From a virus (Duplodnaviria; Heunggongvirae; Uroviricota; Caudoviricetes), in IMG/VR virus record IMGVR_UViG_2778261687_000004, positions 1 through 14,113 of that record: a stretch of DNA of 14,113 nt; one strand, 5' to 3'. The notes under the pieces were generated by a model that worked only from the letters and a program-made list of their open reading frames with translations, did not search any database and was not told the origin of the DNA. Below, piece by piece: positions 1,435 through 13,114 of the stretch. The translations under genes were made by a program, and so were the position numbers. Position 1 is the stretch's first letter, and each line of letters starts with the position of its first letter.

Positions 1435-1641
1435 CTTCATTTTCACTTTTTTAAATCCAACGACAGACGGCTGGCATTTAAGTATTGTGAAATATTATCA
1501 AATGTAATCATCATTGATTTACAAAAGATACATTTTGCCCCGAAAGGATTCATGTCAGAAACATCAAAAGATGATGTTCTATACTGGGAACCATGACAAC
1601 ACGGGCATCTAAAGTGAATATGGTTTGTAATATTGTCTACC

Positions 1642-1854
1642 TCAAAGCGCCACTACATGAACAGCGGCAGGACCTTTAGGTCCGTTCTCAATACCAAATT
1701 CAACTTCCTGATTCTCAGTTAATGTTTTGAAATCGTTGCTCTGAATTGCTGAGAAATGGACAAACACATCTTTGCTGCCATCTTTCGGCGTGATGAAACC
1801 AAAACCTTTTTCAGGGTTAAACCATTTCACTAAACCAGTCATTTTGTTAGACAT
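1642..1854 (-). CDS. cspI: Cold-shock protein, CspA family (70 aa)
   Basis: [38 protein letters not shown]... contains the canonical cold-shock domain RNP motifs (KGFGFI, VFVHF). Paralog assignment is by synteny next to the lysis cassette. Confidence 0.88.
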
Positions 1855-2216
1855 AATTATTACCTTTTGAAGAAATTAGCCCTTGGGCAGAATGGTCCGA
1901 AAAAAAATATCAGAGAGAAAAACCAACAAGGAAATCTCAAGAGGTACAAATAATAAAATTATAACAATGACTGCTTCAGATAAATTTGTAACAAACCAGA
2001 ACACCATTAACGCATGATTAACCACCCATAGCAAGGATTACTTTTGTAAAGAAAAACACAGCAATGAAAGAATAGCTTTATTTATTAATAAAACGTGTCA
2101 TTCTGATTAAGACCTTTTATCTTACCCTTAAGATTTCAGGAATTTTGGCTCATGGAAGAGTCCTTTTTATTTAAATTTTACATTCCGCGATGTAAATGTT
2201 CCGATTTAATATTACC

Positions 2217-3243: not shown

Positions 3244-3551
3244 AGATATTTATGATGAGGACGCTCGTGCTTATTGGCAGGATTTTCAATCTTAAAGGAG
3301 TACTGATGCTGCAGATAAGACTCAACTTTTTCTGACAATTTTTCTGCTACTTCCAGGAAGACTTGCCGGACGCTCCTTCTGGCTGCTGCCTCATAAAACT
3401 CCAGCGCAGCTCCTTCAACACGGTCCATGGCGACATCCAGGTCAAAAATTTCACCGTCAAAGCGTTCTTTGTCCTGTAAGGCTACAGTTACCGTAACTTT
3501 ATTCTCAAAATTACGGACTCCTTTCACAACCAGTTCATAGTCTTGAGTCAT
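3240..3551 (-). CDS. ydfR: DUF1327-family prophage protein (YdfR-like), translationally coupled to the endolysin
   Basis: 103-aa ORF with RBS GAGAGGAG upstream of ATG 3551; its stop overlaps the endolysin start (ATGA 3240-3243). Confidence 0.75.
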
Positions 3552-3555
3552 TGGA

Positions 3556-3771
3556 TTACTCTCCTCTCGCAGCCTTACGCCTGTCTTCTTTAATCTTGAA
3601 ATAAAGATTTGTCAGATACGTCAGCAGGCCAAAAACCAGGCTACCCAGCACACCGATTGCAGCCCACTGTGACGGAGTTACTTTATCGAGTAACTGCAAT
3701 GCCCAGAAACCAGCATTACCCGCCGATGTGCCATAGGCAACACCTGTTGTTAACTTATCCATTGATTTCAT
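3556..3771 (-). CDS. essQ: Class II holin / pinholin (S21-like, 71 aa) with dual-start motif MKSM
   Basis: [71 protein letters not shown] has two TM segments and a charged C-terminus. The longer track ORF (to 3846) has a non-holin-like N-terminal extension. Confidence 0.8.
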
Positions 3772-3990
3772 ATCCTCACCCCGATGTACACGGATGGTGC
3801 AATATGTTTGAAAAGATCGGAGTCTACGGGGTAGTTTTGACAGCACACGTTGTTCTCAACGGCGCTAAAAAAACATACACATTAAAAATGTGGGTAATTA
3901 TTTTGAAAGAAAGTCATATATAAAATAATAATACGAGAAATGTTTTCATATTTAGTGTACTGTATACGGCCATTTATACAGGAAAAGCCT

Positions 3991-4161
3991 ATGTCAGAAC
4001 GTAAAAACTCAAAATCACGCCGTAATTATCTCGTTAAATGTTCCTGCCCAAACTGCACCCAAGAGTCAGAACACAGTTTTTCAAGAGTACAAAAAGGTGC
4101 CCTTTTGATCTGCCCTCATTGCAACAAAGTATTCCAGACAAATCTTAAAGCTGTAGCCTGA
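3991..4161 (+). CDS. ynfU: Small zinc-ribbon protein (56 aa, CxxC...CxxC), YnfU-like
   Basis: ATG 3991 with RBS AGGAAA 5 nt upstream; MSERKNSKSRRNYLVKCSCPNCTQESEHSFSRVQKGALLICPHCNKVFQTNLKAVA carries two CxxC pairs. Symbol from memory of K-12 small-protein annotation, not verified. Confidence 0.6.
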   Translation: MSERKNSKSRRNYLVKCSCPNCTQESEHSFSRVQKGALLICPHCNKVFQTNLKAVA

Positions 4162-4243: not shown

Positions 4244-4524
4244 GAGATTGTGGTGCTTTTTGTGGGAGTCATCCACTTACGCACTTTGTTTTGCCATGCC
4301 AGCAGTTAGCTTCTGCTGTAAAACTATTCATGCAGCAAACCTGCACTTCACCACAATGGTTAGCATACTTTTCCTGATTAAGATTTTGCCAAATATGCTA
4401 GCCATTGTTTCATGTATTGGACCTCCTTACTTTTTATTAAAGAGATCCAATATTCACTACTCTGTCCGTATCTCTACTCAGGCATCAGCCTTCTTCGTTA
4501 TCGTATACAGACGAGCGATGAATT

Positions 4525-4740
4525 TTAATCAGTAATGATGACATTTGCTGCTGCAGGACCTTTAGCACCACTCTCTATAGAGAAGGTAACCTTTTGACCT
4601 TCAAATAAGGTTCGATAATTATCATTCTGAATCGCAGAAAAATGCACAAACACATCTTTACTACCATCAACAGGAGAAATAAAGCCGAAACCTTTATCAG
4701 CGTTAAACCATTTTACTAAACCAGTCATTTTATTTGACAT
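4525..4740 (-). CDS. cspB: Cold-shock protein, CspA family (71 aa)
   Basis: [67 protein letters not shown]...; RBS AAGGAA; long 5' leader. Confidence 0.88.
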
Positions 4741-4757
4741 TCTACATTCCTTAACTT

Positions 4758-4769
4758 GAGCCTTTCGGC
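4758..4769 (-). promoter_or_regulatory. csp 5'-UTR 'upstream box'-like element (GCCGAAAGGCTC) just 5' of the cspB SD
   Basis: Minus strand reads ATGCCGAAAGGCTCAAGTTAAGGAATGTAGA-ATG. This is one mismatch from the cspA-family upstream-box consensus GCCGAAAGGCACA as I recall it. Confidence 0.5.
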
Positions 4770-5040
4770 ATAAATGGTTTGCATAACAGAAACGACTTCG
4801 TACTTAATTGGAGAGACTCAAAGAAGGAATAAGTGAATAACACCTGAAATGAGAACTGCTTTAGTAAACTACTTCGTATATCGTCTGTTCTTCAAACCGA
4901 CGCAATCATTAACGCATAGTTGAACATATGAAGCAATGTTTATTTTAGACATCCAGCCATCTTCAACCCCATCAAAAAACTATAGCTTTCTTCAGGAACG
5001 TGTGTATAGTGCGCCAAGTTATCAGTATTAAGGAATTTTT

Positions 5041-5674: not shown

Positions 5675-6427
5675 TTATCTCGTCACCTTCCTCAATTGCG
5701 CTTCCGCGTATGCTTCTTCCTGCCAGCACTTTGTTACCAGTTTACCAATGACGTCCGCATACCCCTTATACCACTGATAATCGGTCAGGTCTGGTACCAG
5801 CTTCTGGACATGACGTCGTGCCAACGTGGTCGGTAAACGACTAAACCGGTTTCCATTACAACGCCCACAAATCTTATATACCGGTACGCCATGAAACCGG
5901 GTTCTTTTTTCATCCAGAACAATCCCTTTACCCTTACACCCTCTGCACGCTGTGCTGGCTTCGCCCTTACCATGGCAATGCTGACATAGTTCCTTCACCC
6001 ATTATTCCTTGATTACAGATTCCCCGCGTCTGTAGTGTTTCACCACTTCGCGCAATACATTATAAAATCCCGTACCTGAACAATGCTCACAGCGAGCCTT
6101 ACTTGCCGCAGACCTGGAGTAATCAGCAAAGGCAAAACTCACGAGGTAAGGAATAATCTGTAACCGGATTTCTTCACTCAATTTGTTCAATGTCGGGTTA
6201 TCCAGTGCCATCGCGTAATTTAGCAGGCCTTCAATCGCAAACTGAGGGTCCTGAACACCAACTTTTGCCAGAAATAAGGCCAACCCAAGTGGTGCTTTCG
6301 ACTGCACCATCCCCTGCGCTGCCATTACATCCGTAATTGTTAAACAACCGGTGCCTGTCGCTGGAGCGTCATCGCTCAATTTTGGAGATTTTGGGGAGTA
6401 ATATTTTGGTAAGGCTTCAAGGTTCAT
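5675..6427 (-). pseudogene. quuQ: Lambdoid late-gene antiterminator Q homolog interrupted by an in-frame TAA (plus 6002-6004)
   Basis: Track ORFs 6002..6457 (N-terminal part) and 5675..5998 (C-terminal part with zinc-finger CxxC...CxxC: CQHCHGKGEASTACRGCKGKG...CGRCNG) are in the same frame, separated only by TAA-TGG. ATG 6427 has RBS GGAGAA; counting the stop as a codon gives 250 codons. Confidence 0.75.
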
Positions 6428-6440
6428 GCTCGTTCTCCAC

Positions 6441-7325
6441 TTACGCCAGTACGCCAATTGCCAGCGCGCGATCGATAAAACGAAATATCAGCTCCAGTTG
6501 AGAGCCATACTTATCTTCAAATGCCACTGTATCCGTATGCAGCTCGTTGTGATGCTTTCTGCACAAAGGCAACACAAAGAGATCATGTGCTTTTGTTCCC
6601 ATTCCGCCCTGCCCGTGACCAATCAGATGATGCGGATCGTCGGCTGGCATACCGCAGCAAGCACACGGCTGTGTCTTAACCCAACGTGTGTATTTCTCCT
6701 TAACCCAGCGGCGACGTTTAGGCAGCTTCATGAAAGATTCCGGAGACTCTGGATCAACGGTGATGCTTACCACCGTCTTTTCCTGTGGTGATTTTTGTTG
6801 CTGGTGGGCGTAAGGCAACGGTGCAAGATTTTTTGTGCGTTGTTTCAATATGCTGGTGGCGGTCTGCTCTCCCGGTACGATGTCGCTTTCGCGGTACACC
6901 GAGCAGATTTTTTCCGCTGGTAATCCCAGCGAACGACGCGATACAGCCTCAGGTAGTGCATCCACCACCTGATTGCAGACCGCCCACCAGGATAATTCAG
7001 CCAAAGATAATTCCCGCTCCTGCGTACCGCTTATTGCGTGACGGATGACGTCAATCACCCATGCTGTCAGATTTTGTTGAGCAAGCAGCTCCAGTGATTC
7101 CGATGTCTGGTCACGCAGTTGGTTGTCGCAGTGCCAGCACAACACCATTGCGCCGGTACCATAACGGTGAATGACTGTTTCAGTGTGATGGTAATCGCCA
7201 TTAGGCCACTGGCAGGATGTAACATGACGTAATAGCCAGTCGGACAATGCGCCAACCCGCGCCTGCGGTAAGAATGAATCAGCCATTCGGCCTGTTCTGC
7301 AGTGCATGGAGGGTGCTGGAACCAT
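6441..7325 (-). CDS. ydfU: DUF968-family prophage protein with C-terminal HNH/zinc-finger-like motif (YdfU-like); probably the 3' portion of a frameshifted gene
   Basis: 294-aa ORF; C-terminus CACCGMPADDPHHLIGHGQGGMGTKAHDLFVLPLCRKHHNELH. Its ATG is immediately preceded by an in-frame TGA and has no SD. Confidence 0.8.
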   Translation of the reverse strand: MVPAPSMHCRTGRMADSFLPQARVGALSDWLLRHVTSCQWPNGDYHHTETVIHRYGTGAMVLCWHCDNQLRDQTSESLELLAQQNLTAWVIDVIRHAISGTQERELSLAELSWWAVCNQVVDALPEAVSRRSLGLPAEKICSVYRESDIVPGEQTATSILKQRTKNLAPLPYAHQQQKSPQEKTVVSITVDPESPESFMKLPKRRRWVKEKYTRWVKTQPCACCGMPADDPHHLIGHGQGGMGTKAHDLFVLPLCRKHHNELHTDTVAFEDKYGSQLELIFRFIDRALAIGVLA

Positions 7326-7414
7326 TCAGACTTGAATGCGTGAGAATACCGCCCGTGCGTGCAGGCAAGAACGGGCGAATTATCAGAATTGTAATATTTT
7401 GCGTTGCGTGCCAT
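7067..7414 (-). CDS. ORF with good RBS that overlaps ydfU in another frame; likely the true 5' end of ydfU (frameshift near 7250-7260) or, less likely, a separate overlapping gene
   Basis: ATG 7414 preceded by CCGGAGAAAACCG. The first ~50 aa look protein-like (MARNAKYYNSDNSPVLACTHGRYSHAFKSEWFQHPPCTAEQAEWLIHSY...); the remainder is low-complexity (C/W/T-rich) while the ydfU frame becomes protein-like at the same point. Confidence 0.35.
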   Translation of the reverse strand: MARNAKYYNSDNSPVLACTHGRYSHAFKSEWFQHPPCTAEQAEWLIHSYRRRGLAHCPTGYYVMLHPASGLMAITITLKQSFTVMVPAQWCCAGTATTNCVTRHRNHWSCLLNKI

Positions 7415-7752
7415 CGGTTTTCTCCGGTGGCACGGTGTTACTCAGCGGGAGTTCAGCCCCGCGCAAGATTGTAGATGAGTTTATTCTCCTGAAAAAGCAG
7501 AAAAGCCAGCTTTTATTCCGATCTCTTTCAATGCCTGTAATGAAGTGACAAACTCACCTTCGCGCAAGATAAATCCGTCCGTGACCTGACCTGTCGATAA
7601 AGGAACGTAACACGTTTTATGCAACACCCGCATGCGGCAGAAAATTATTGCCGAACGTTTACCCCTGTCAACAAGCTTTACTTTCTGAGGCGCGCCAGCC
7701 CGCGAGGAAAACAATCTGAACATCAAACAATTAATGACACAAGAAATACGAT

Positions 7753-7779
7753 TAAAGATTTTTTTGTGCATGCCGATAG
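7753..7779 (+). promoter_or_regulatory. Sigma28 (FliA) class promoter for flxA
   Basis: TAAAGATT (7753-7760), 11-nt spacer, GCCGATAG (7772-7779), matching the sigma28 consensus TAAAGTTT-N11-GCCGATAA; lies 24 nt upstream of the flxA ATG. Confidence 0.65.
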
Positions 7780-7802
7780 TGCTTTTTTAAAAGGAGAAAT
7801 CT

Positions 7803-8135
7803 ATGTCTGTCACAATTCAGGGAAATACCTCAACCGTTATTTCAAACAACTCCGCCCCGGAAGGAACATCAGAAATAGCCAAAATCACAAGACAAATTCA
7901 GGTGCTGACTGAAAAGCTTGGGAAAATCTCATCGGAAGAGGGGATGACGACACAGCAGAAAAAAGAAATGGCTGCATTGGTACAGAAGCAAATTGAAAGC
8001 CTCTGGGCTCAACTGGAGCAGTTGTTAAGGCAGCAGGCAGAGAAAAAGAATGAAGACGCGACAGTTCAGCCTGATAAAAAAGAAGAGAAAAAAGACGATA
8101 CAAATACCGCTGGCACCATTGATATTTACGTCTAA
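7803..8135 (+). CDS. flxA: FliA-regulated prophage protein FlxA (110 aa)
   Basis: MSVTIQGNTSTVISNNSAPEGTSEIAKITRQIQVLTEKLGKISSEEG...; RBS AAGGAG; sigma28 promoter upstream. Recognised from memory of FlxA. Confidence 0.85.
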   Translation: MSVTIQGNTSTVISNNSAPEGTSEIAKITRQIQVLTEKLGKISSEEGMTTQQKKEMAALVQKQIESLWAQLEQLLRQQAEKKNEDATVQPDKKEEKKDDTNTAGTIDIYV

Positions 8136-8149
8136 GTGACAGCCGTATT

Positions 8150-8172
8150 GTGGCCCTCATCGGGCCACTTTT
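8150..8172 (+). terminator. Intrinsic terminator of flxA
   Basis: GTGGCCC-TCATC-GGGCCAC followed by TTTT, 15 nt after the flxA stop. Confidence 0.7.
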
Positions 8173-8571
8173 CGCCATCAGCCTTTTCTTTAAAGACATA
8201 TTATCTTTGTATCATTTCTGATAGTTAACATTACAAGATATAAGTAATGGACGCACTCCCAATTAGTCTATTTAAATCGCCACGAGTTTAACTGACAACC
8301 CATGATCAATTATGAATTGCAACTATTTCTGTAGTCACTTTTGTGGGGACAGTCCACAAAACTGCCAACTTCCGCTTCTTGCTCTTAGCGGACATTAGCA
8401 TAGGCTATTTACCATAACGCCTCATTACGCGCACCGCCCAGACTGACTCAGCGCGTTTCTGGCATATCCCCGGTAAAACAAGTAACAAACCACCCGAAAA
8501 TGAACACCAGAAACGCGACTTAAGAATCTACCCTATGAATGGATATGCACTCAACCGAATCGATCTTGGTT

Positions 8572-9885
8572 TCAATCTTTTTTATCGGGATCAGGCTTCT
8601 TTTTAGGTAACTTCGGGGGCTTAACTTGCTGATGACTTTGCGTTCGGCGCGTAAGCCAGGGATGGTCAGCTTTAGGTTTAACATAGTATTTTGAGCGTAA
8701 ATCAATACGGGCATTATCCACTCGTTCATGGACACTCTTTTCATCATCCAGTGGTATAGGCTCCGGGCCATCAACATACTTTTCCCAGCCCAGCGCTTTC
8801 CCGTCATACAGAACGTTAATTTCACCGTCAAAGTTCTCGCATACAGTAACAACCGAATGCCTAAGTCGATATCCCCGGCCCTCACTGCGTACCTGAAACG
8901 CACTGCTTTTGTACTGGAAAGTGAGATTTTTAGACAGAACGCGCTTCGCCTGTAGGCTGAAGATATAACCCAGTTCCTCTTCAGAATGGTGCACATCAAG
9001 ATGAGCATTATCAGTAGTACGAGGCGACGTAGCGAACCGGTTGTTATAGGCTTCAATAAAGGTCGGCAACCATGCATTTGCTGTTTCAATATCACTGATA
9101 TTCTGAAGCCGCATTTCTTTGACCAGCCTGTCCTGTAGTGTCTGATTGGCGCGCTCTACCCGCCCTTTTGCCTGCGGGCTGTTGGCATGGATTGGCTCGA
9201 TGCCCAGTGTCTTTATCGCACGAGTGAACTGGGTCAGCTCACCTTCCCGCTCTGGGTTATTTACCCTGAATATACTGTGTCTATCAGAGTAGAGAGCGAG
9301 CGGTACGCCATGATCATTAAGGTAACCCCGGAGGGTTTCCATGTAAGCCCGGGTTGTTTCAGCAGGCACAAAACGCAACGCCATCAACGCACTGGTGGCA
9401 TCATCAATGAAAACGATCAGTGTACATCTGGGGCCTCGATTTTCAAACCAGTCATGAGGTGAGCCATCAATCTGGATCAGTTCACCGTAAGATGGTCGTC
9501 GCATGCGGCGTTGATATATACGGGCAATTTTACGACGGCGTTCACGCCATAACCCCTCTTCTATCATCCACTTTCTGAGAGTTTCAACGGATAAAGATAA
9601 ACCGTGTATCTCGCGCAATTTTTCGCACGCAAACGTAGGTCCAAAATCAGCGTAACGGCCTTTGAGGAGTGAAATTACTGTTGCTCTGAATTCAGTAGAA
9701 AAGGAATTATTAGGACGCTTTCCACGTCGGTGGGAAACCAGACCAGAAGGCCCTTCATTTCTATACCGTTGCACCAGACGTTTAACCTGCCGAATAGAAA
9801 TGCCAATGCGTGCCGCAGCTTGTTCCTGAATAATCTGAAGTCGGTGGAGTTCCTTATGACTCATCGTAACAGTCTCTTTGATCAT
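8572..9885 (-). CDS. Transposase-like protein, N-terminal HTH plus DDE/rve integrase-core domain and C-terminal extension (437 aa); probably IS481-family-like, family not verified
   Basis: N-terminal HTH (GISIRQVKRLVQRYRNEGPSGLVSHRRGKRPNN); D residues in LIQIDGSPHDWF and VFIDDATS; HANSPQAKGRVERANQTLQDRL resembles the retroviral-integrase-type E motif. RBS TGGGGGAT upstream of ATG 9885. Confidence 0.8.
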   Translation of the reverse strand: MIKETVTMSHKELHRLQIIQEQAAARIGISIRQVKRLVQRYRNEGPSGLVSHRRGKRPNNSFSTEFRATVISLLKGRYADFGPTFACEKLREIHGLSLSVETLRKWMIEEGLWRERRRKIARIYQRRMRRPSYGELIQIDGSPHDWFENRGPRCTLIVFIDDATSALMALRFVPAETTRAYMETLRGYLNDHGVPLALYSDRHSIFRVNNPEREGELTQFTRAIKTLGIEPIHANSPQAKGRVERANQTLQDRLVKEMRLQNISDIETANAWLPTFIEAYNNRFATSPRTTDNAHLDVHHSEEELGYIFSLQAKRVLSKNLTFQYKSSAFQVRSEGRGYRLRHSVVTVCENFDGEINVLYDGKALGWEKYVDGPEPIPLDDEKSVHERVDNARIDLRSKYYVKPKADHPWLTRRTQSHQQVKPPKLPKKKPDPDKKD

Positions 9886-9973
9886 GAAAAATCCCCCAGA
9901 GAATTGTCTGGGGACATTTTAGAATGGTTCAAAGGGGACATTACAGCTTGGTGTTAACAATAGCCTGCTTCTC

Positions 9974-9989
9974 CGTGCCTTTCGGCACG
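9974..9989 (-). other. GNRA-tetraloop hairpin (CGTGCC-GAAA-GGCACG) resembling a csp 'upstream box', followed by SD-like GGAGAAG, with no nearby start codon
   Basis: Minus strand reads ACGTGCCGAAAGGCACGGAGAAGCAGGC; GCCGAAAGGCAC matches the cspA-family upstream-box consensus as I recall it. Confidence 0.4.
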
Positions 9990-10219
9990 TAAGAGGCTAA
10001 CCTACATGTGTCTAGCATGAAATTGGCCTCAGATTAATGTTAAGCGTCTTGCAGGACGCGTAATGTTAACTGGGGCTTTTCTCTATCTGCCGTTGGTGTC
10101 CATGCCCGAGGCAGATAGCCTCAAGCACCCGCAGTCATTCTACTTAACTAAGATTTCCCCGCAAACCGTTTTTGTCCAGCACAGTAAATATCCAACTAAA
10201 CCAATGGAGTTCGCTGTAT

Positions 10220-10399
10220 TTACCGCCAGTATTCAATGCACATGACCGCCATGAACACCCCTAAAAAAAGGGCATTTATATATCCAAATATTAATATCAA
10301 AACATCAACTTTTTCCATATACCTTGCTGTGAAGATGATGGGCATACATGATGCGAACAACCAGAACGCAACAAACAAAAACTGCAATGCGTTTTTCAT
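10220..10399 (-). CDS. Candidate small membrane protein (59 aa, two predicted TM helices)
   Basis: Strong SD AGGAGG 4 nt upstream of ATG 10399; MKNALQFLFVAFWLFASCMPIIFTARYMEKVDVLILIFGYINALFLGVFMAVMCIEYWR. The longer track ORF starts with GTG and lacks a usable SD. Confidence 0.5.
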   Translation of the reverse strand: MKNALQFLFVAFWLFASCMPIIFTARYMEKVDVLILIFGYINALFLGVFMAVMCIEYWR

Positions 10400-11016
10400 T
10401 ATTCCTCCTACAATCAATGTGCAATTACATTTAAACACACCTCAATTTGGCCGGACATATAAATATCTAAACCAGAAAAAATCACTTACATAGCGTTACA
10501 AACTCTTTAGTCTAAAGGTTCATCGTAAAACATTCCCCATACTTATCAGTCCGTTCCGCGCCAGGTAGCTCATTGCCTTATCTGGCAACCTGTAATCAGG
10601 TTTCCGCTTTTTCAGTTGGCTGGTCGTTTAACCGACATAGTTAATCCATTAATCTAGTTGCCGGATGTTGGTGGATTTTCGCGTTTTAGTTGTTCATAAA
10701 AGTGCACAGCTTTAACCAGTTCTTCTGATGTAACTGGGACTGGTGAGGCAGTGAATAAGGCCTGAATTTGATAGTTCGGCCTGTCGTTACAATCCTCTTT
10801 TTTCGGTACATATTTCCAGTCACCAGACCACTACTTCCCCTGAAAGTCCGTAACGCCTTTTTTCACGTAGCGATATCGCCATGCCACTGGTTTTGCTTGC
10901 CCCGCCGTTTCATGCCCTTCCTGATAATTAATCTCGCTCATTCATCGCCCCACTCATCACAATATGCTTCGACCGGAGTTTTTCCCGCTTCATAGTCATC
11001 ACGCTAGGATTCGACA

Positions 11017-11316
11017 TCAGCAGCACTTCCACCGCGTAGCCTCCATAATTGCAGGCACTAGCGCCGTGAACTTTTCACGCTTATCCCTGGTGTCGATAGC
11101 CTTCCAGCGTTCAAATATCTTCACTCGATTAACGCCAAGCGCTCGCTGATCAATCGCGCCACCTTCATATGTGACACGCTGAACATCGATGTTCGGGCGC
11201 TCTTTCAAAGCCCAGAATGCTTCAGTGATTAATATCGTCGCCTGCTCCTGTGTCATTCCTGGTCGACATATCCAGGCATCCAGAGCCTCACGAGCCTGTT
11301 CAGGAGTGATTTTCAT
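11017..11316 (-). CDS. Hypothetical 99-aa protein immediately downstream of dicC, overlapping it by 17 nt (ydfX position)
   Basis: ORF MKITPEQAREALDAWICRPGMTQEQATILITEAFWALKERPNIDVQRV...; the dicC stop (11300-11302) lies inside it in another frame. Weak SD. Confidence 0.5.
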   Translation of the reverse strand: MKITPEQAREALDAWICRPGMTQEQATILITEAFWALKERPNIDVQRVTYEGGAIDQRALGVNRVKIFERWKAIDTRDKREKFTALVPAIMEATRWKCC

Positions 11317-13061: not shown

Positions 13062-13114
13062 TTTCTGGTGACGTTTGGCGGTATCAGTTTTACTCCGTGA
13101 CTGCTCTGCCGCCC
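13062..13114 (+). ncRNA. dicF: DicF small regulatory RNA (about 53 nt; ftsZ-targeting), processed from the dicB operon transcript
   Basis: TTTCTGGTGACGTTTGGCGGTATCAGTTTTACTCCGTGACTGCTCTGCCGCCC followed by TTTTT (13115-13119), between ydfC and dicB; recognised from memory of the DicF sequence; preceded by a GC-rich structured region. Confidence 0.8.

Follow-up and report, generated by a model that had tools for sequence, protein, structure and literature searches.

The window analysed here is a 14,113-nt stretch of a caudoviricete virus record (IMGVR_UViG_2778261687_000004). On its minus strand, an IS1202-family transposase gene is preceded by a small hairpin and an SD-like motif at 9995-9960, which the earlier note had read either as what remains of a csp-type leader after its disruption by the insertion or as a structured element in the leader of the transposase. 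The features of the locus, as they emerge from comparison with related genomes and with the hok/sok systems, are collected in Table 1.

Table 1. Features of the split hok/sok locus and of the adjoining transposon (positions in the window).
Feature	Position	Strand	Description and basis
Surviving part of the transposon	7587..9959	-	IRL, tnp, flxA (on the + strand, 7803-8135) and the final bases of ydfV
Transposase, IS1202 family (ISNCY_2, 'ISEsa1 family')	8572..9885	-	437 aa; NCBIfam NF033594
Terminator-like hairpin	9893..9914	-	8-bp stem and ATTTTTC, directly before the transposase ATG
Subterminal repeat AATGTCCCC	9910..9918	-	duplicates the inner part of IRL (9942-9934)
IRL TGTTAACACCAAGCTGTAATGTCCCC	9934..9959	-	imperfect inverted repeat of IRR (...CTTCTGCTTTGCGTTGACA) in L001, L003, L006 and elsewhere
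Truncated mok' frame	9941..10018	-	25 codons; read from the sequence and aligned with an R1-type leader
Left copy of the target duplication, GGAGAAGCAGGCTAT	9960..9974	-	15 bp; holds the hok SD (GGAG, 9974-9971) and the AT of ATG (9961-9960)
hok leader	9960..10130	-	starts at hok mRNA +1 with tac and ends after the AT of the hok ATG; RF01794
Hairpin CGTGCC-GAAA-GGCACG	9974..9989	-	CGTGCC 9989-9984, GAAA 9983-9980, GGCACG 9979-9974; inner stem-loop just 5' of the hok SD, inside the mok frame
Putative sok promoter	9975..10003	+	-35 GTGCCT (9975-9980), 17-nt spacer, -10 TAACCT (9998-10003); homology with R1
Conserved box TAGCCTCTT	9991..9999	-	closely follows the mok start; forms the 5' side of the outer stem
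Putative Sok antisense RNA gene	10011..10080	+	~70 nt; R1 Sok homology (primers, PMC1635323); within the RF01794 match
Putative hok -10 box TAGAAT	10137..10142	-	6 nt upstream of the first base of the leader (10130)

The minus-strand sequence that the earlier note had quoted for 9995-9960 was borne out, and direct reading of 9990-9963 gives ACGTGCCGAAAGGCACGGAGAAGCAGGC. The GAAA-tetraloop hairpin followed by GGAG is present as described, with a perfect 6-bp stem, and the transposase ATG indeed lies 75 nt beyond 9960, at 9885. The claim that no start codon follows needs one correction: the AT of the original ATG persists, its G having been displaced by the transposon end. The hairpin is nested in an outer stem, in which TAGCCTCTT pairs with GAG..AGGCTA (9973-9961).

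Short GNRA hairpins and GGAG motifs are common, and one could regard the element as a chance hairpin beside a chance GGAG. We give this reading practically no credence, as the 56-nt context of the hairpin has a folding energy of -22.1 kcal/mol, shuffled sequences averaging -12.4 (z = -3.9; none of the 200 shuffles folds as stably), the region is covered by a match to the Rfam model of the hok mRNA leader (RF01794, E = 1.6e-24), and the hairpin-plus-SD layout is kept across hok leaders. In 14 hok leaders, the corresponding position is occupied by a hairpin whose loop and stem vary (GAAA, GGAA, GCGA, GCAA, TTAAAT, CGT). A covariation test of the inner hairpin in the 13 leaders targeted by transposons gave no covariation support, the core G-C pairs being almost invariant; this near-invariance may reflect the sok -35 box, or a sampling bias, only targeted sites being included. 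The hairpin is supported instead by the different stems in more distant leaders (L010, L013, L042 and K-12 hokA). By itself it is ordinary, a known part of a known toxin-antitoxin leader.

The RF01794 match spans 10130-9959 of the minus strand and is full length (model positions 1-157; 104.1 bits, the gathering score being 59). The model consensus aligned to the hairpin element is ugccgaAAGGCAAgGggaaggCuAaaAUG, and where the consensus reads ugccgaAAGGCAAgG..AUG, the window has AUU for AUG. The segment 9960-10130, put to the hok leader model, passes, and it is 98% identical to the leader joined directly to hokD in strain a15. The pentamer TAGCC is invariant or nearly so in 13 hok leaders; the TAGCCTCTT box would be the 'dcb' of the hok literature, with a role deduced from PMC9841398.

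From +1 to the hok start, the architecture is the same as in the hok/sok (parB) locus of R1 and in chromosomal hokA-E (RF01794; toxin, PF01848): tac, the mok SD and start, the Sok target, the TAGCCUCUU box, the hairpin and GGAG-N8-AUG follow each other, and the antisense sok gene has the same location. GAGG at 10030-10027 is the mok SD. Unlike these loci, the window has neither a toxin ORF nor the 3' fbi element, and mok has only 25 codons, as it now stops at a TAA inside the transposon IRL and its overlap with hok is missing. No Hok/Gef toxin ORF (~50 aa) was found downstream of the SD, and no hokD in the window; the fbi element, which pairs with tac, belongs to the 3' part of the locus, and this part was lost with the deletion that corresponds to L003 8443-9868. 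The locus is split by a transposon, and not by IS150 or IS186 insertions or point mutations, as is reportedly the case in other hok loci of K-12. The window holds a remnant of a hok/sok locus and no functional member, and the GGAG is a genuine ribosome-binding site without its start codon. We are highly confident that 9995-9960 are the last 36 bases of a hok/sok leader, cut at the toxin start codon by a relBE-carrying transposon of the IS1202 family.

The resemblance to csp leaders, on which the earlier note had built, is real but limited. The csp upstream-box consensus used there is correct: cspA of K-12 has GCCGAAAGGCACA, 11 nt upstream of its SD, and the bona fide cspB leader in the window has GCCGAAAGGCTC at 4769-4758. 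A cspA-family 5' UTR whose cold-shock gene was removed by the insertion could account for the identity of 12 of the 13 bases between GCCGAAAGGCAC and the upstream box, and the window does contain two real csp leaders. The upstream-box 12-mer occurs once in the window against 0.01 occurrences expected by chance, and the likeness extends to a small GNRA hairpin a short distance upstream of an SD. The identity, however, depends in part on one base in which the window departs from the intact hokD leaders, both of those examined having GGCAA; the exact 12/12 match hinges on this base, and with GGCAA the match is 11 nt. The box match does not separate the two families, because the hok leader consensus has the same motif. 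In ~900 kb of loci, GCCGAAAGGCA was found only in hok leaders and in cspA itself, and the hairpins of other hok leaders have different loops, the identity being confined to one sub-type.

Alignment to csp 5' UTRs, which the earlier note had proposed as a check, went against the csp reading: the cspA, cspB and cspI leaders resemble the element in the ~12-nt box only, the likeness ending at the edges of the box, whereas the same 70 nt differ from an intact hokD leader by one base only. The position of the box is also different, as here it abuts the SD directly, while in cspA it precedes the SD by ~11 nt. The Rfam cspA thermoregulator (RF01766) matches the window only at 4509-4901 and 1615-2000, with no match in 9700-10400 at E <= 1, whereas the whole 171 nt fit the hok leader model; and at the empty sites described below it is hokD, not a csp gene, that lies downstream. 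A csp-leader origin is rejected by the Rfam models, by the alignments and by the distribution of the motif, and we consider it extremely improbable. What stands of the original proposal is a disrupted leader remnant, the family being hok/sok, not csp. The resemblance to the csp box is regarded as a coincidence, at most a convergence on a small stable hairpin.

At 9960/9959, where the leader breaks off, the left end (IRL) of an IS1202-family transposon begins. The reverse complement of its right end (IRR) is TGTCAACGCAAAGCAGAAGTGTCACC, so that the element ends with TGT and ACA; the IRL is also present in 79 genome loci and 91 metagenome stretches. Both junctions are seen in loci L001 and L003, with the order leader-GGAGAAGCAGGCTAT/TGTTAACACC...GCGTTGACA/GGAGAAGCAGGCTAT-GAAG (hokD) and an element of 3274 bp, and K-12 (L002) has the right junction only. 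The 15-mer GGAGAAGCAGGCTAT directly follows IRR and precedes hokD in all three of these loci, and it is present in a single copy at the empty sites (L004 and L005). In the related genomes, the second copy of the duplication is found at a distance of 3.27 kb, behind relB-relE and immediately in front of hokD. At the empty sites, in strains a15 and MLI023K2, the same leader continues straight into hokD, followed in a15 by rem and ydfU. The leader at these sites was checked for a Hok ORF downstream, and the ORF is there: the ORF that in L001 and L003 lies 3.27 kb away behind relBE (PF01848, 82.9 bits) is contiguous with the leader in L004 and L005, and the a15 protein (WP_000813254.1) has the very accession annotated as HokD in the insertion-bearing W5-6 and EC17CM13. 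The leader and hokD are contiguous in 4020 of the 5426 E. coli genomes.

These comparisons also bear on whether the hairpin could be a part of the transposon, that is, a structure in the 5' UTR of the transposase gene or an outward-facing signal regulating it. No gene lies in the 75 nt between the hairpin and the tnp ATG downstream of it, both are on the same strand, and transcription from the hok promoter might in principle extend into tnp. On the other hand, the terminal inverted repeat begins at 9959 and does not include the hairpin, the hairpin is unchanged where the transposon is missing, and the sequence found at this position differs beside other copies of the transposon. In addition, the terminator-like hairpin at 9914-9893 stands between it and the tnp start; this separate hairpin is the structured element that truly belongs to the transposase leader. 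We consider an origin of the hairpin from the transposon very unlikely, and the second suggestion of the earlier note fails, as the hairpin lies beyond the repeat and is present at the empty sites.

We conclude that a 3.27-kb IS1202-family transposon with the order IRL-tnp-flxA-ydfV-relB-relE-IRR inserted into the hok leader with its IRL starting at 9959, and that the insertion duplicated the 15-bp GGAGAAGCAGGCTAT; therefore the leader retains the SD and 'AT' without a toxin gene after them. Together with the other SD copy, the toxin gene hokD was moved behind relBE, to the other end of the transposon, which is the relBEF operon of K-12. The position of the second duplication copy, after relB-relE and just before hokD, explains this operon: like relBEF (relB-relE-hokD), the right end of the transposon in related genomes consists of relB, relE, 60 bp with IRR, the duplicated hok SD and hokD, and the leader in the window represents the 5' half of the locus that encodes the toxin HokD (RelF) of K-12. 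The idea of two halves of hokD that meet without an overlap was refined, as the halves overlap by 15 bp; this overlap is the target duplication, and the halves do not represent two paralogous loci.

The window itself, unlike K-12, lacks these genes. In a BLAST comparison with L003, window positions 7581-11047 correspond to L003 9869-13336, while L003 8443-9868 is missing; the right end of the transposon (relB, relE and IRR), the second copy of the duplication and hokD are deleted, and no IRR motif was found in the window. Thus, in the lineage of the window, a later deletion took relBE, IRR and hokD. The arrangement of the window is also present in E. coli C, W and IAI1. The orphan half of the leader carries no annotation in the RefSeq records examined. 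A passage of a review (PMC6379469), citing Ramisetty and Santhosh (2016), states that relBE was integrated into hokD; our literature search retrieved no source that names an IS1202-family transposon as the vehicle of relBE or describes its duplication.

The transposase matches NF033594 with 456 bits (cut-off, 250) and the Pfam domains HTH_32, HTH_29 and HTH_28, with rve_3 just below the threshold; the PGAP name is 'IS1202-like element ISEsa1 family'. It agrees with the definition of IS1202 transposases (ISNCY_2 type, N-terminal HTH and DDE core, 394-507 aa). As in the IS1202 family (formerly the IS1202 group of ISNCY), the transposase is of the HTH-HTH-DDE type with ~440-450 aa (PMC10132070; bioRxiv 2022.12.17.520857), the terminal repeats are imperfect, ~24-26 bp long and end with TGT/ACA, and the inner part of the repeat has a subterminal copy. 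The same subterminal-repeat architecture is described for the family (PMC10132070), and this copy is likely a second binding site of the transposase. The last 49 codons of the gene are annotated as 'ydfW', and hence ydfW of K-12 is the tail of a transposase. In an alignment with the 446-aa form, which is found for example on the IncI1 plasmid p7_33_46A-2 (NZ_CP074821.1) and in an IncHI2 copy, the transposase of the window lacks 9 aa (SINRHITQE) in the N-terminal HTH region; because of this deletion and of the missing right end, the copy in the window is probably inactive.

Across the transposon family, the layout is IRL-tnp-cargo-relBE-IRR, with a total size of 3.3-7.3 kb, relBE fixed next to IRR and variable cargo; passenger genes are also borne by some other IS1202 members, including the 'transporter IS' tISKpn21. 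The target duplications are of 13-16 bp in enterobacteria, mostly 15-16 bp, and of ~15-17 bp in the Hahella copies (more than 15 loci), so that both fit the IS1202 subgroup with 15-17 bp duplications (bioRxiv 2022.12.17.520857), other subgroups having 5-6 or 27-28 bp; the window has the left copy only. Harmer et al. reported no duplication for ISEsa1, and no target for the groups with long or no duplications. The 1609-bp ISEsa1 entry of ISfinder may represent the left 1.6 kb of such a transposon, and a wrongly placed right boundary would then account for the undetected duplication.

The consequences of the insertion are best considered against the intact locus. There, the minus-strand transcript is the hok mRNA, and the TAGCCTCTT box, the small hairpin and GGAG..AUG form a two-tier stem-loop. 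Since this structure hides the hok ribosome-binding site, Hok is made only if ribosomes translating the overlapping mok frame open it, and mok translation is blocked by the Sok antisense RNA. In the window, the putative Sok is complementary to the mok translation-initiation region, and the 3' half of the hairpin would serve, on the opposite strand, as the sok -35 box. This box is GTGCCT here and TTGCCT in the intact loci (T-to-G in the first position, A-to-C on the leader strand). The putative hok -10 box TAGAAT is at the position equivalent to that of the experimentally defined -10 box of R1 hok, TATGAT (PMC9841398). The 5' end of Sok was set from the in-vitro transcription primer in PMC1635323, and the sok promoter was placed with the help of the delta-pSok mutation, which falls in dcb. 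A generic sigma-70 scan of 9850-10300 yielded no promoter and called neither that of hok nor that of sok; therefore the positions of both are homology-based.

The element now appears to be a fossil that controls no toxin. The leader remnant may still yield a short leader transcript and Sok RNA; read-through from the leader into tnp is probably limited by the terminator-like hairpin within the transposon, which would attenuate transcription from the hok promoter. Alternatively, the remnant could have been kept as a functional element, its orphan Sok neutralising incoming or paralogous hok mRNAs as an 'anti-addiction' module. Many genomes have the leader, its sok region included, with 100% conservation, and most E. 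coli genomes have several hokD-type loci whose leaders, 90-98% identical, are possible targets of Sok. However, recent common descent may alone explain the high identity, the first position of the putative sok -35 box is changed from T to G relative to the intact loci, and K-12 lacks the whole remnant with no known consequence. We consider a retained function of this kind unlikely, and favour the fossil.

The insertion into the hokD leader is not a solitary case. Related transposons abut at least 16 different hok leaders, by our own grouping, at the same position and each with its own duplication. The RF01794 match ends exactly at IRL in L006, L009, L013, L016, L027 and L041, and in all six loci tested the right-flank ORFs encode Hok/Gef (PF01848). 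IRL lies 38-42 nt from T[AG]GCC, in most cases at 40-41 nt. Hok initiation regions make up 39 of the ~52 distinct left flanks (genomes and metagenomes, the Hahella copies excluded), a count that exceeds the number of independent events, as the descendants of one insertion acquire point mutations and are then counted as separate flanks. Among the 637 plasmid records with IRL, 500 also match into a hok-leader flank. The same 3.3-kb element was independently inserted in a pnd locus (hok family) of an IncI1 plasmid, with the 16-bp duplication TGGAGGGGCTATGATG, and the occurrence of the same element at different sites with different duplications argues for its mobility. The pattern of flanks suggests that the transposon family lands preferentially at the hok translation-initiation region, tnp always being oriented as hok.

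The preference is not absolute: ~13 enterobacterial flanks are non-hok (e.g. L012, L080, L088, L095), and the Hahella copies (62% identical) insert elsewhere. About half of the non-hok targets also have a weaker core motif, (T/A)G(G/T/A)CA, 16-17 nt from IRL, which is similar to the tip of the element's own IRR (TTGACA). In hok leaders, the 3' half of the hairpin, GGCA, sits exactly at the left edge of the duplication. In tandem arrangements (IRR-duplication-IRL; L102, L161), the hairpin is not beside the new insertion, and therefore the hairpin itself may not be the feature that is recognised. When IRR was compared with the hok leader left of the duplication, the similarity was limited to the terminal G-CA and to an 8-mer, GCTTTGCG, shared with the R1 hairpin, which is unconvincing. 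IRR also contains CTTCTGC, which is complementary to the GCAGAAG-type sequence of the hok initiation region.

A similar mode of insertion is found in the IS1202 members of the ISAjo2/ISAba32 type, which target dif/pdif: these are also inserted in one orientation beside a conserved site, with the duplication between the site and IRL. Unlike in these elements, the duplication here is ~15 bp (13-17 bp), not 5 bp, and the hok translation-initiation region takes the place of a XerC/D site as the target; no XerC/D (dif-like) site was seen in the target by eye against the consensus. No description of an association of hok with ISEsa1, IS1202 or ISNCY, nor of a target preference for hok, was found in a literature search.

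Taken as a whole, the flanks make it likely that the hok initiation region, comprising the hairpin, the SD and the start codon, is the preferred site of widespread relBE-carrying transposons of the IS1202 family. Under the mechanism that we infer for this landing preference, each insertion would be oriented and would duplicate the hok SD and start codon; it would uncouple the toxin from its own promoter and from Sok control, placing it behind relB-relE. Operons of the relB-relE-hok type, such as relBEF of K-12, would thus arise repeatedly, and orphan leaders would be left behind.

For the textbook relBEF operon, this provides a concrete mechanism of origin, with precise ends and a target duplication. 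The transposon family is present in hundreds of plasmids of Klebsiella, Enterobacter, Citrobacter, Salmonella and E. coli, and its elements, which bear an addiction module of their own and variable cargo, repeatedly land in another addiction module. If the preference is true, it would supply a target for a branch of IS1202 in which published surveys had found none. As regards annotation, orphan hok leaders, and possibly an orphan Sok RNA, lie unannotated beside 'ISNCY/ISEsa1' transposases in ~700-800 of the 5426 complete E. coli genomes.

The minus strand of positions 9995-9960 reads as the earlier note gave it. A perfect 6-bp tetraloop hairpin, CGTGCC (9989-9984), GAAA and GGCACG (9979-9974), is enclosed by an outer stem formed by TAGCCTCTT (9999-9991) and GAG..AGGCTA, and for the 56-nt stretch around it the folding energy is -22.1 kcal/mol (z = -3.9 versus shuffles). 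The GGAG motif (9974-9971) is directly 3' of the hairpin, and the transposase ORF (437 aa) starts at 9885 on the same strand. The consensus of the csp upstream box in the earlier note is also accurate: K-12 cspA has GCCGAAAGGCACA 5' of its Shine-Dalgarno sequence (SD), and the window's own cspB leader has GCCGAAAGGCTC, while only 0.01 chance occurrences of the 12-mer of the box are expected in the window. With the sequence, the fold, the GGAG and the box match all borne out, the observation is confirmed. The cspI 'upstream box' in the window is a variant, GCCCAAGGGC.

The Rfam scan of the window yielded four matches, two cspA thermoregulators, DicF and RF01794 'sok' (see the table). As its alignment demonstrates, the RF01794 model is the sense-strand leader of hok mRNA, spanning from GGGUGCUUGAGG (the 5' tac element) through to the hok AUG, with the consensus AGCCuCUUaccugccgaAAGGCAAgGggaaggCuAaaAUG across the hairpin and the SD. 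The window agrees with it throughout, except for AUU at the end instead of the model's AUG. Thus, the hairpin and the 'SD-like motif' are the hok ribosome-binding region, and the hok toxin ORF is severed within its start codon, of which the first two bases are left. A permissive Rfam search found no csp match in 9700-10400, and in direct alignment with the cspA, cspB and cspI leaders the likeness of the hairpin region was confined to the box, whereas the same 70 nt are identical to an intact hokD leader but for one base. The RF01794 match, the lack of a csp match in that search and the box-only likeness together rule out a csp leader, and the csp resemblance is coincidental. Hence, of the proposal that a csp-type leader remnant had been disrupted by an insertion, the remnant and the insertion stand, while the family is hok rather than csp. 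As a feature, the hairpin is of a known kind, a standard component of an established RNA family.

Features of the window: RNA family matches, inferred sok promoter elements and deletions relative to most Qin-type prophages (e.g. L003, a related locus with the transposon and both junctions)
Feature	Position	Strand	Basis or remarks
RF01794 'sok' match	10130-9959	-	Rfam, 104 bits
cspA-type thermoregulator leader (cspB)	4509-4901	-	Rfam, above gathering threshold
cspA-type thermoregulator leader (cspI)	1615-2000	-	Rfam, above gathering threshold
DicF sRNA	13063-13114	+	Rfam, above gathering threshold
Inferred sok -10, TAACCT	9998-10003	+	Alignment to R1
Inferred sok -35	9975-9980	+	Alignment to R1
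Deletion, ~350 bp, ydfU end	7254-7260		Short overlap at joint
Deletion, 1.4 kb, rem'-hokD-relE-relB-ydfV'	7581-7586		Short overlap at joint
Deletion, ~2.5 kb, DUF7167, methyltransferase, DUF977, replication genes	11036-11047		Short overlap at joint

Translation of Hok requires translation of the overlapping frame mok, which is blocked by the antisense RNA Sok. Where the locus is intact, a two-tier stem-loop made up of the TAGCCUCUU box, the hairpin and GGAG..AUG occludes the hok SD (PMC9841398). We positioned the putative sok promoter by alignment to hok/sok of the reference plasmid R1, the 5' end of Sok being defined by a primer in PMC1635323 and the delta-pSok mutation being situated in dcb, an element of the hok mRNA; a generic promoter scan did not call this promoter. 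So placed, the -35 element would be the 3' half of the hairpin. Within the hairpin, the family consensus is most conserved at AAGGCAA, the complement of which is TTGCCT, and a -35 role would explain this. Intact loci read TTGCCT at this point, as does at least one hokD-type leader with the transposon (the L113 group), and the window reads GTGCCT; hence, the base by which the hairpin becomes perfect and the csp match grows from 11 to 12 nt is probably a later mutation weakening the putative -35.

The window, a cryptic lambdoid prophage of the Qin type from E. coli, contains the genes cspI, cspB, cspF, ydfT, ydfU, flxA, 'ydfW', the ISNCY transposase gene, dicC, dicA and dicF. A leader-only search returned thousands of E. 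coli loci with homology reaching window position 9960, the gene under the match being annotated hokD; at least one contiguous leader with hokD is present in 4020 of 5426 complete E. coli genomes. The locus of strain a15 (replication genes, leader, hokD, rem, ydfU) is an empty site, and its HokD (WP_000813254.1) has the same accession as that of the insertion-bearing strains W5-6 and EC17CM13. The empty site reads ...GCCGAAAGGCAA GGAGAAGCAGGCTAT GAAGCAG..., and at the occupied sites (L003 and a similar locus, L001) the left junction is ...GGCAC GGAGAAGCAGGCTAT / TGTTAACACCAAGCTGTAATGTCCCC..., followed 3274 bp onward by the right one, ...CTTCTGCTTTGCGTTGACA / GGAGAAGCAGGCTAT GAAGCAG (hokD). The hok leader thus breaks off at the junction with a transposon, whose insertion duplicated 15 bp.

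The transposon carries the transposase gene, flxA, ydfV, relB and relE between imperfect inverted repeats (left, IRL; right, IRR) with terminal TGT and ACA, and AATGTCCCC recurs subterminally. The transposase (NF033594 ISNCY_2, 456 bits; PGAP name 'IS1202-like element ISEsa1 family'), the ends and the subterminal repeat agree with what has been published on the IS1202 family (PMC10132070), and the duplication length fits the subgroup with 15-17 bp in the Siguier/Chandler preprint (bioRxiv 2022.12.17.520857). Within the transposon, between the hok leader and the transposase start, a terminator-like hairpin of 8 bp and the ATTTTTC after it (9893-9914, minus strand) immediately precede the transposase ATG, and the hairpin overlaps the second AATGTCCCC; plausibly, it is a guard against read-through from the promoter of the target. 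At the other end, the IRR (L003 8974-9000, minus strand; the relE-hokD spacer of K-12) includes CTTCTGCTT, complementary to AAGCAG(AAG) just downstream in the duplicated hok initiation region, and also GCTTTGCG, which occurs in the R1 hairpin as well; hence, this end may give the captured hok an SD-occluding structure again.

K-12 (L002) keeps just the right ~2.07 kb of the transposon (IRR, relE, relB, ydfV, flxA and ydfW), having lost the IRL, most of the transposase gene and the hok leader. Thus, YdfW is the transposase tail, 'ydfW' (b1567; window 8572-8721, minus strand; L002 11175-11324) being the last 49 codons of an IS1202-family transposase ORF, and relB-relE-hokD (relBEF) is the right junction of the transposon. 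The window is the opposite remnant, with the leader, the IRL, the transposase gene and flxA kept, and ydfV-relBE-IRR-hokD and a part of rem taken from its lineage by the 1.4-kb deletion. The hok leader here is probably a fossil: mok' runs for 25 codons to a stop within the IRL, and no toxin ORF follows the leader in the window. The transposase of the Qin copy (window 9885-9820, minus strand; L003) lacks, in frame, nine residues of the N-terminal HTH, SINRHITQE (codons 22-30 in the 446-aa full-length form); these residues are present in Shigella, plasmid and other enterobacterial copies.

The insertion is recurrent. An identical 3.3-kb element resides in the pnd (hok-family) locus of an IncI1 plasmid, between trbA and excA, with a different duplication, TGGAGGGGCTATGATG, followed by an intact PndA-type ORF. 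The different duplication sequences either side of the element favour transposition over spread by homologous recombination. Among 79 loci from a transposase scan with one genome per species, the IRL adjoins a hok leader, each with its own sequence, in the Enterobacteriaceae loci L009, L010/11/14/15, L013/25, L016, L018, L019, L024, L027, L041 and L042. The RF01794 match ends precisely at the IRL in six of these and is absent from the nine non-hok loci; in 6/6 loci tested, the ORFs 3' of the right-hand duplication encode Hok/Gef (PF01848). The related elements, 3.3-7.3 kb long (right ends located for most) with duplications of 13-16 bp, all have in common the left ~1.6 kb (IRL and transposase gene) and the right 713 bp (relB, relE and IRR), RelB (PF04221) and RelE (PF05016) being the conserved cargo. 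The variable cargo in between includes predicted membrane proteins, regulator-like ORFs (as judged by eye from translations) and secondary IS insertions.

In metagenomes, an exact-pattern IRL scan gave 91 stretches with 40 distinct left flanks, ~30 of them hok initiation regions. When all sources are pooled without the Hahella copies, the hok initiation region accounts for 39 of ~52 distinct flanks, which by our own grouping represent no fewer than 16 clearly distinct hok leaders. The conserved T[AG]GCC lies 38-42 nt from the IRL, in most cases 40-41 nt. In PLSDB, the IRL region occurs in 637 plasmids, 500 of which match into the leader flank too. These data show oriented, position-specific insertion at hok initiation regions; candidates for the recognised feature are the hairpin, the GGCA edge, the SD-ATG segment or DNA structure.

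The preference is not absolute: ~13 enterobacterial flanks are non-hok, and no Hahella copy (a 62%-identical 1.45-kb IS) is at hok. In about half of these enterobacterial flanks and in several from Hahella, (T/A)G(G/T/A)CA is present 16-17 nt from the IRL, a motif similar to the hok GGCA and to the element's own IRR tip (TTGACA). Tandems, in which the IRR is followed by a spacer of one duplication length and another IRL, were seen in L102 and L161 (metagenome), L029 (Hahella, 7375-7395) and L024 (~7528-7545, with the IRL of a related element), which suggests that one site is used repeatedly or that the element's own right tip serves as a target motif.

A second, unrelated IS end (TTATTCTGTCCAACTTTTTGGGGTCAGTAC) is at the same position in four hok leaders (L007, L010, L018 and L024), ~75 nt upstream of each IRL and adjoining the sequence just 5' of the mok SD, and at K-12 hokA (L008 934) IS150 is 32 nt upstream of the ATG, next to the equivalent hairpin; hok leaders appear to draw several IS types to fixed places. 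In one locus, L020, a copy with no RF01794 match, an Rfam isrO (RF01397) match (5837-5950, minus strand, 58.8 bits) crosses the IRL junction, and the flank has TAGCC and GGCA at hok-leader-like distances from the IRL; this transposon end, or else a hok-like leader, may be part of the isrO seed.

Pedersen and Gerdes (1999) reportedly ascribed the inactivation of hokD to a 'major rearrangement'. A passage of a review citing Ramisetty and Santhosh (2016) has relBE integrated into hokD (PMC6379469), and Harmer, Pong and Hall (2023) described ISEsa1 without a detectable duplication and found no target for the long-duplication or no-duplication groups. The full-text literature searched describes neither the relBE vehicle with its ends and duplication, nor the orphan leader, nor recurrent hok targeting, and we provisionally regard the transposon vehicle, the orphan leader and the recurrent targeting as novel.

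In a distant element from Scandinavium (L040; 4275 bp; ~70% DNA identity in the transposase region), relBE by the IRR is replaced by another addiction module (3349-4094), of the DUF1778 / GNAT-acetyltransferase type as judged by eye from translations. A toxin-antitoxin pair beside the right end seems to be a recurring trait of these transposons. The interest of the hairpin lies in the transposon junction that it marks.
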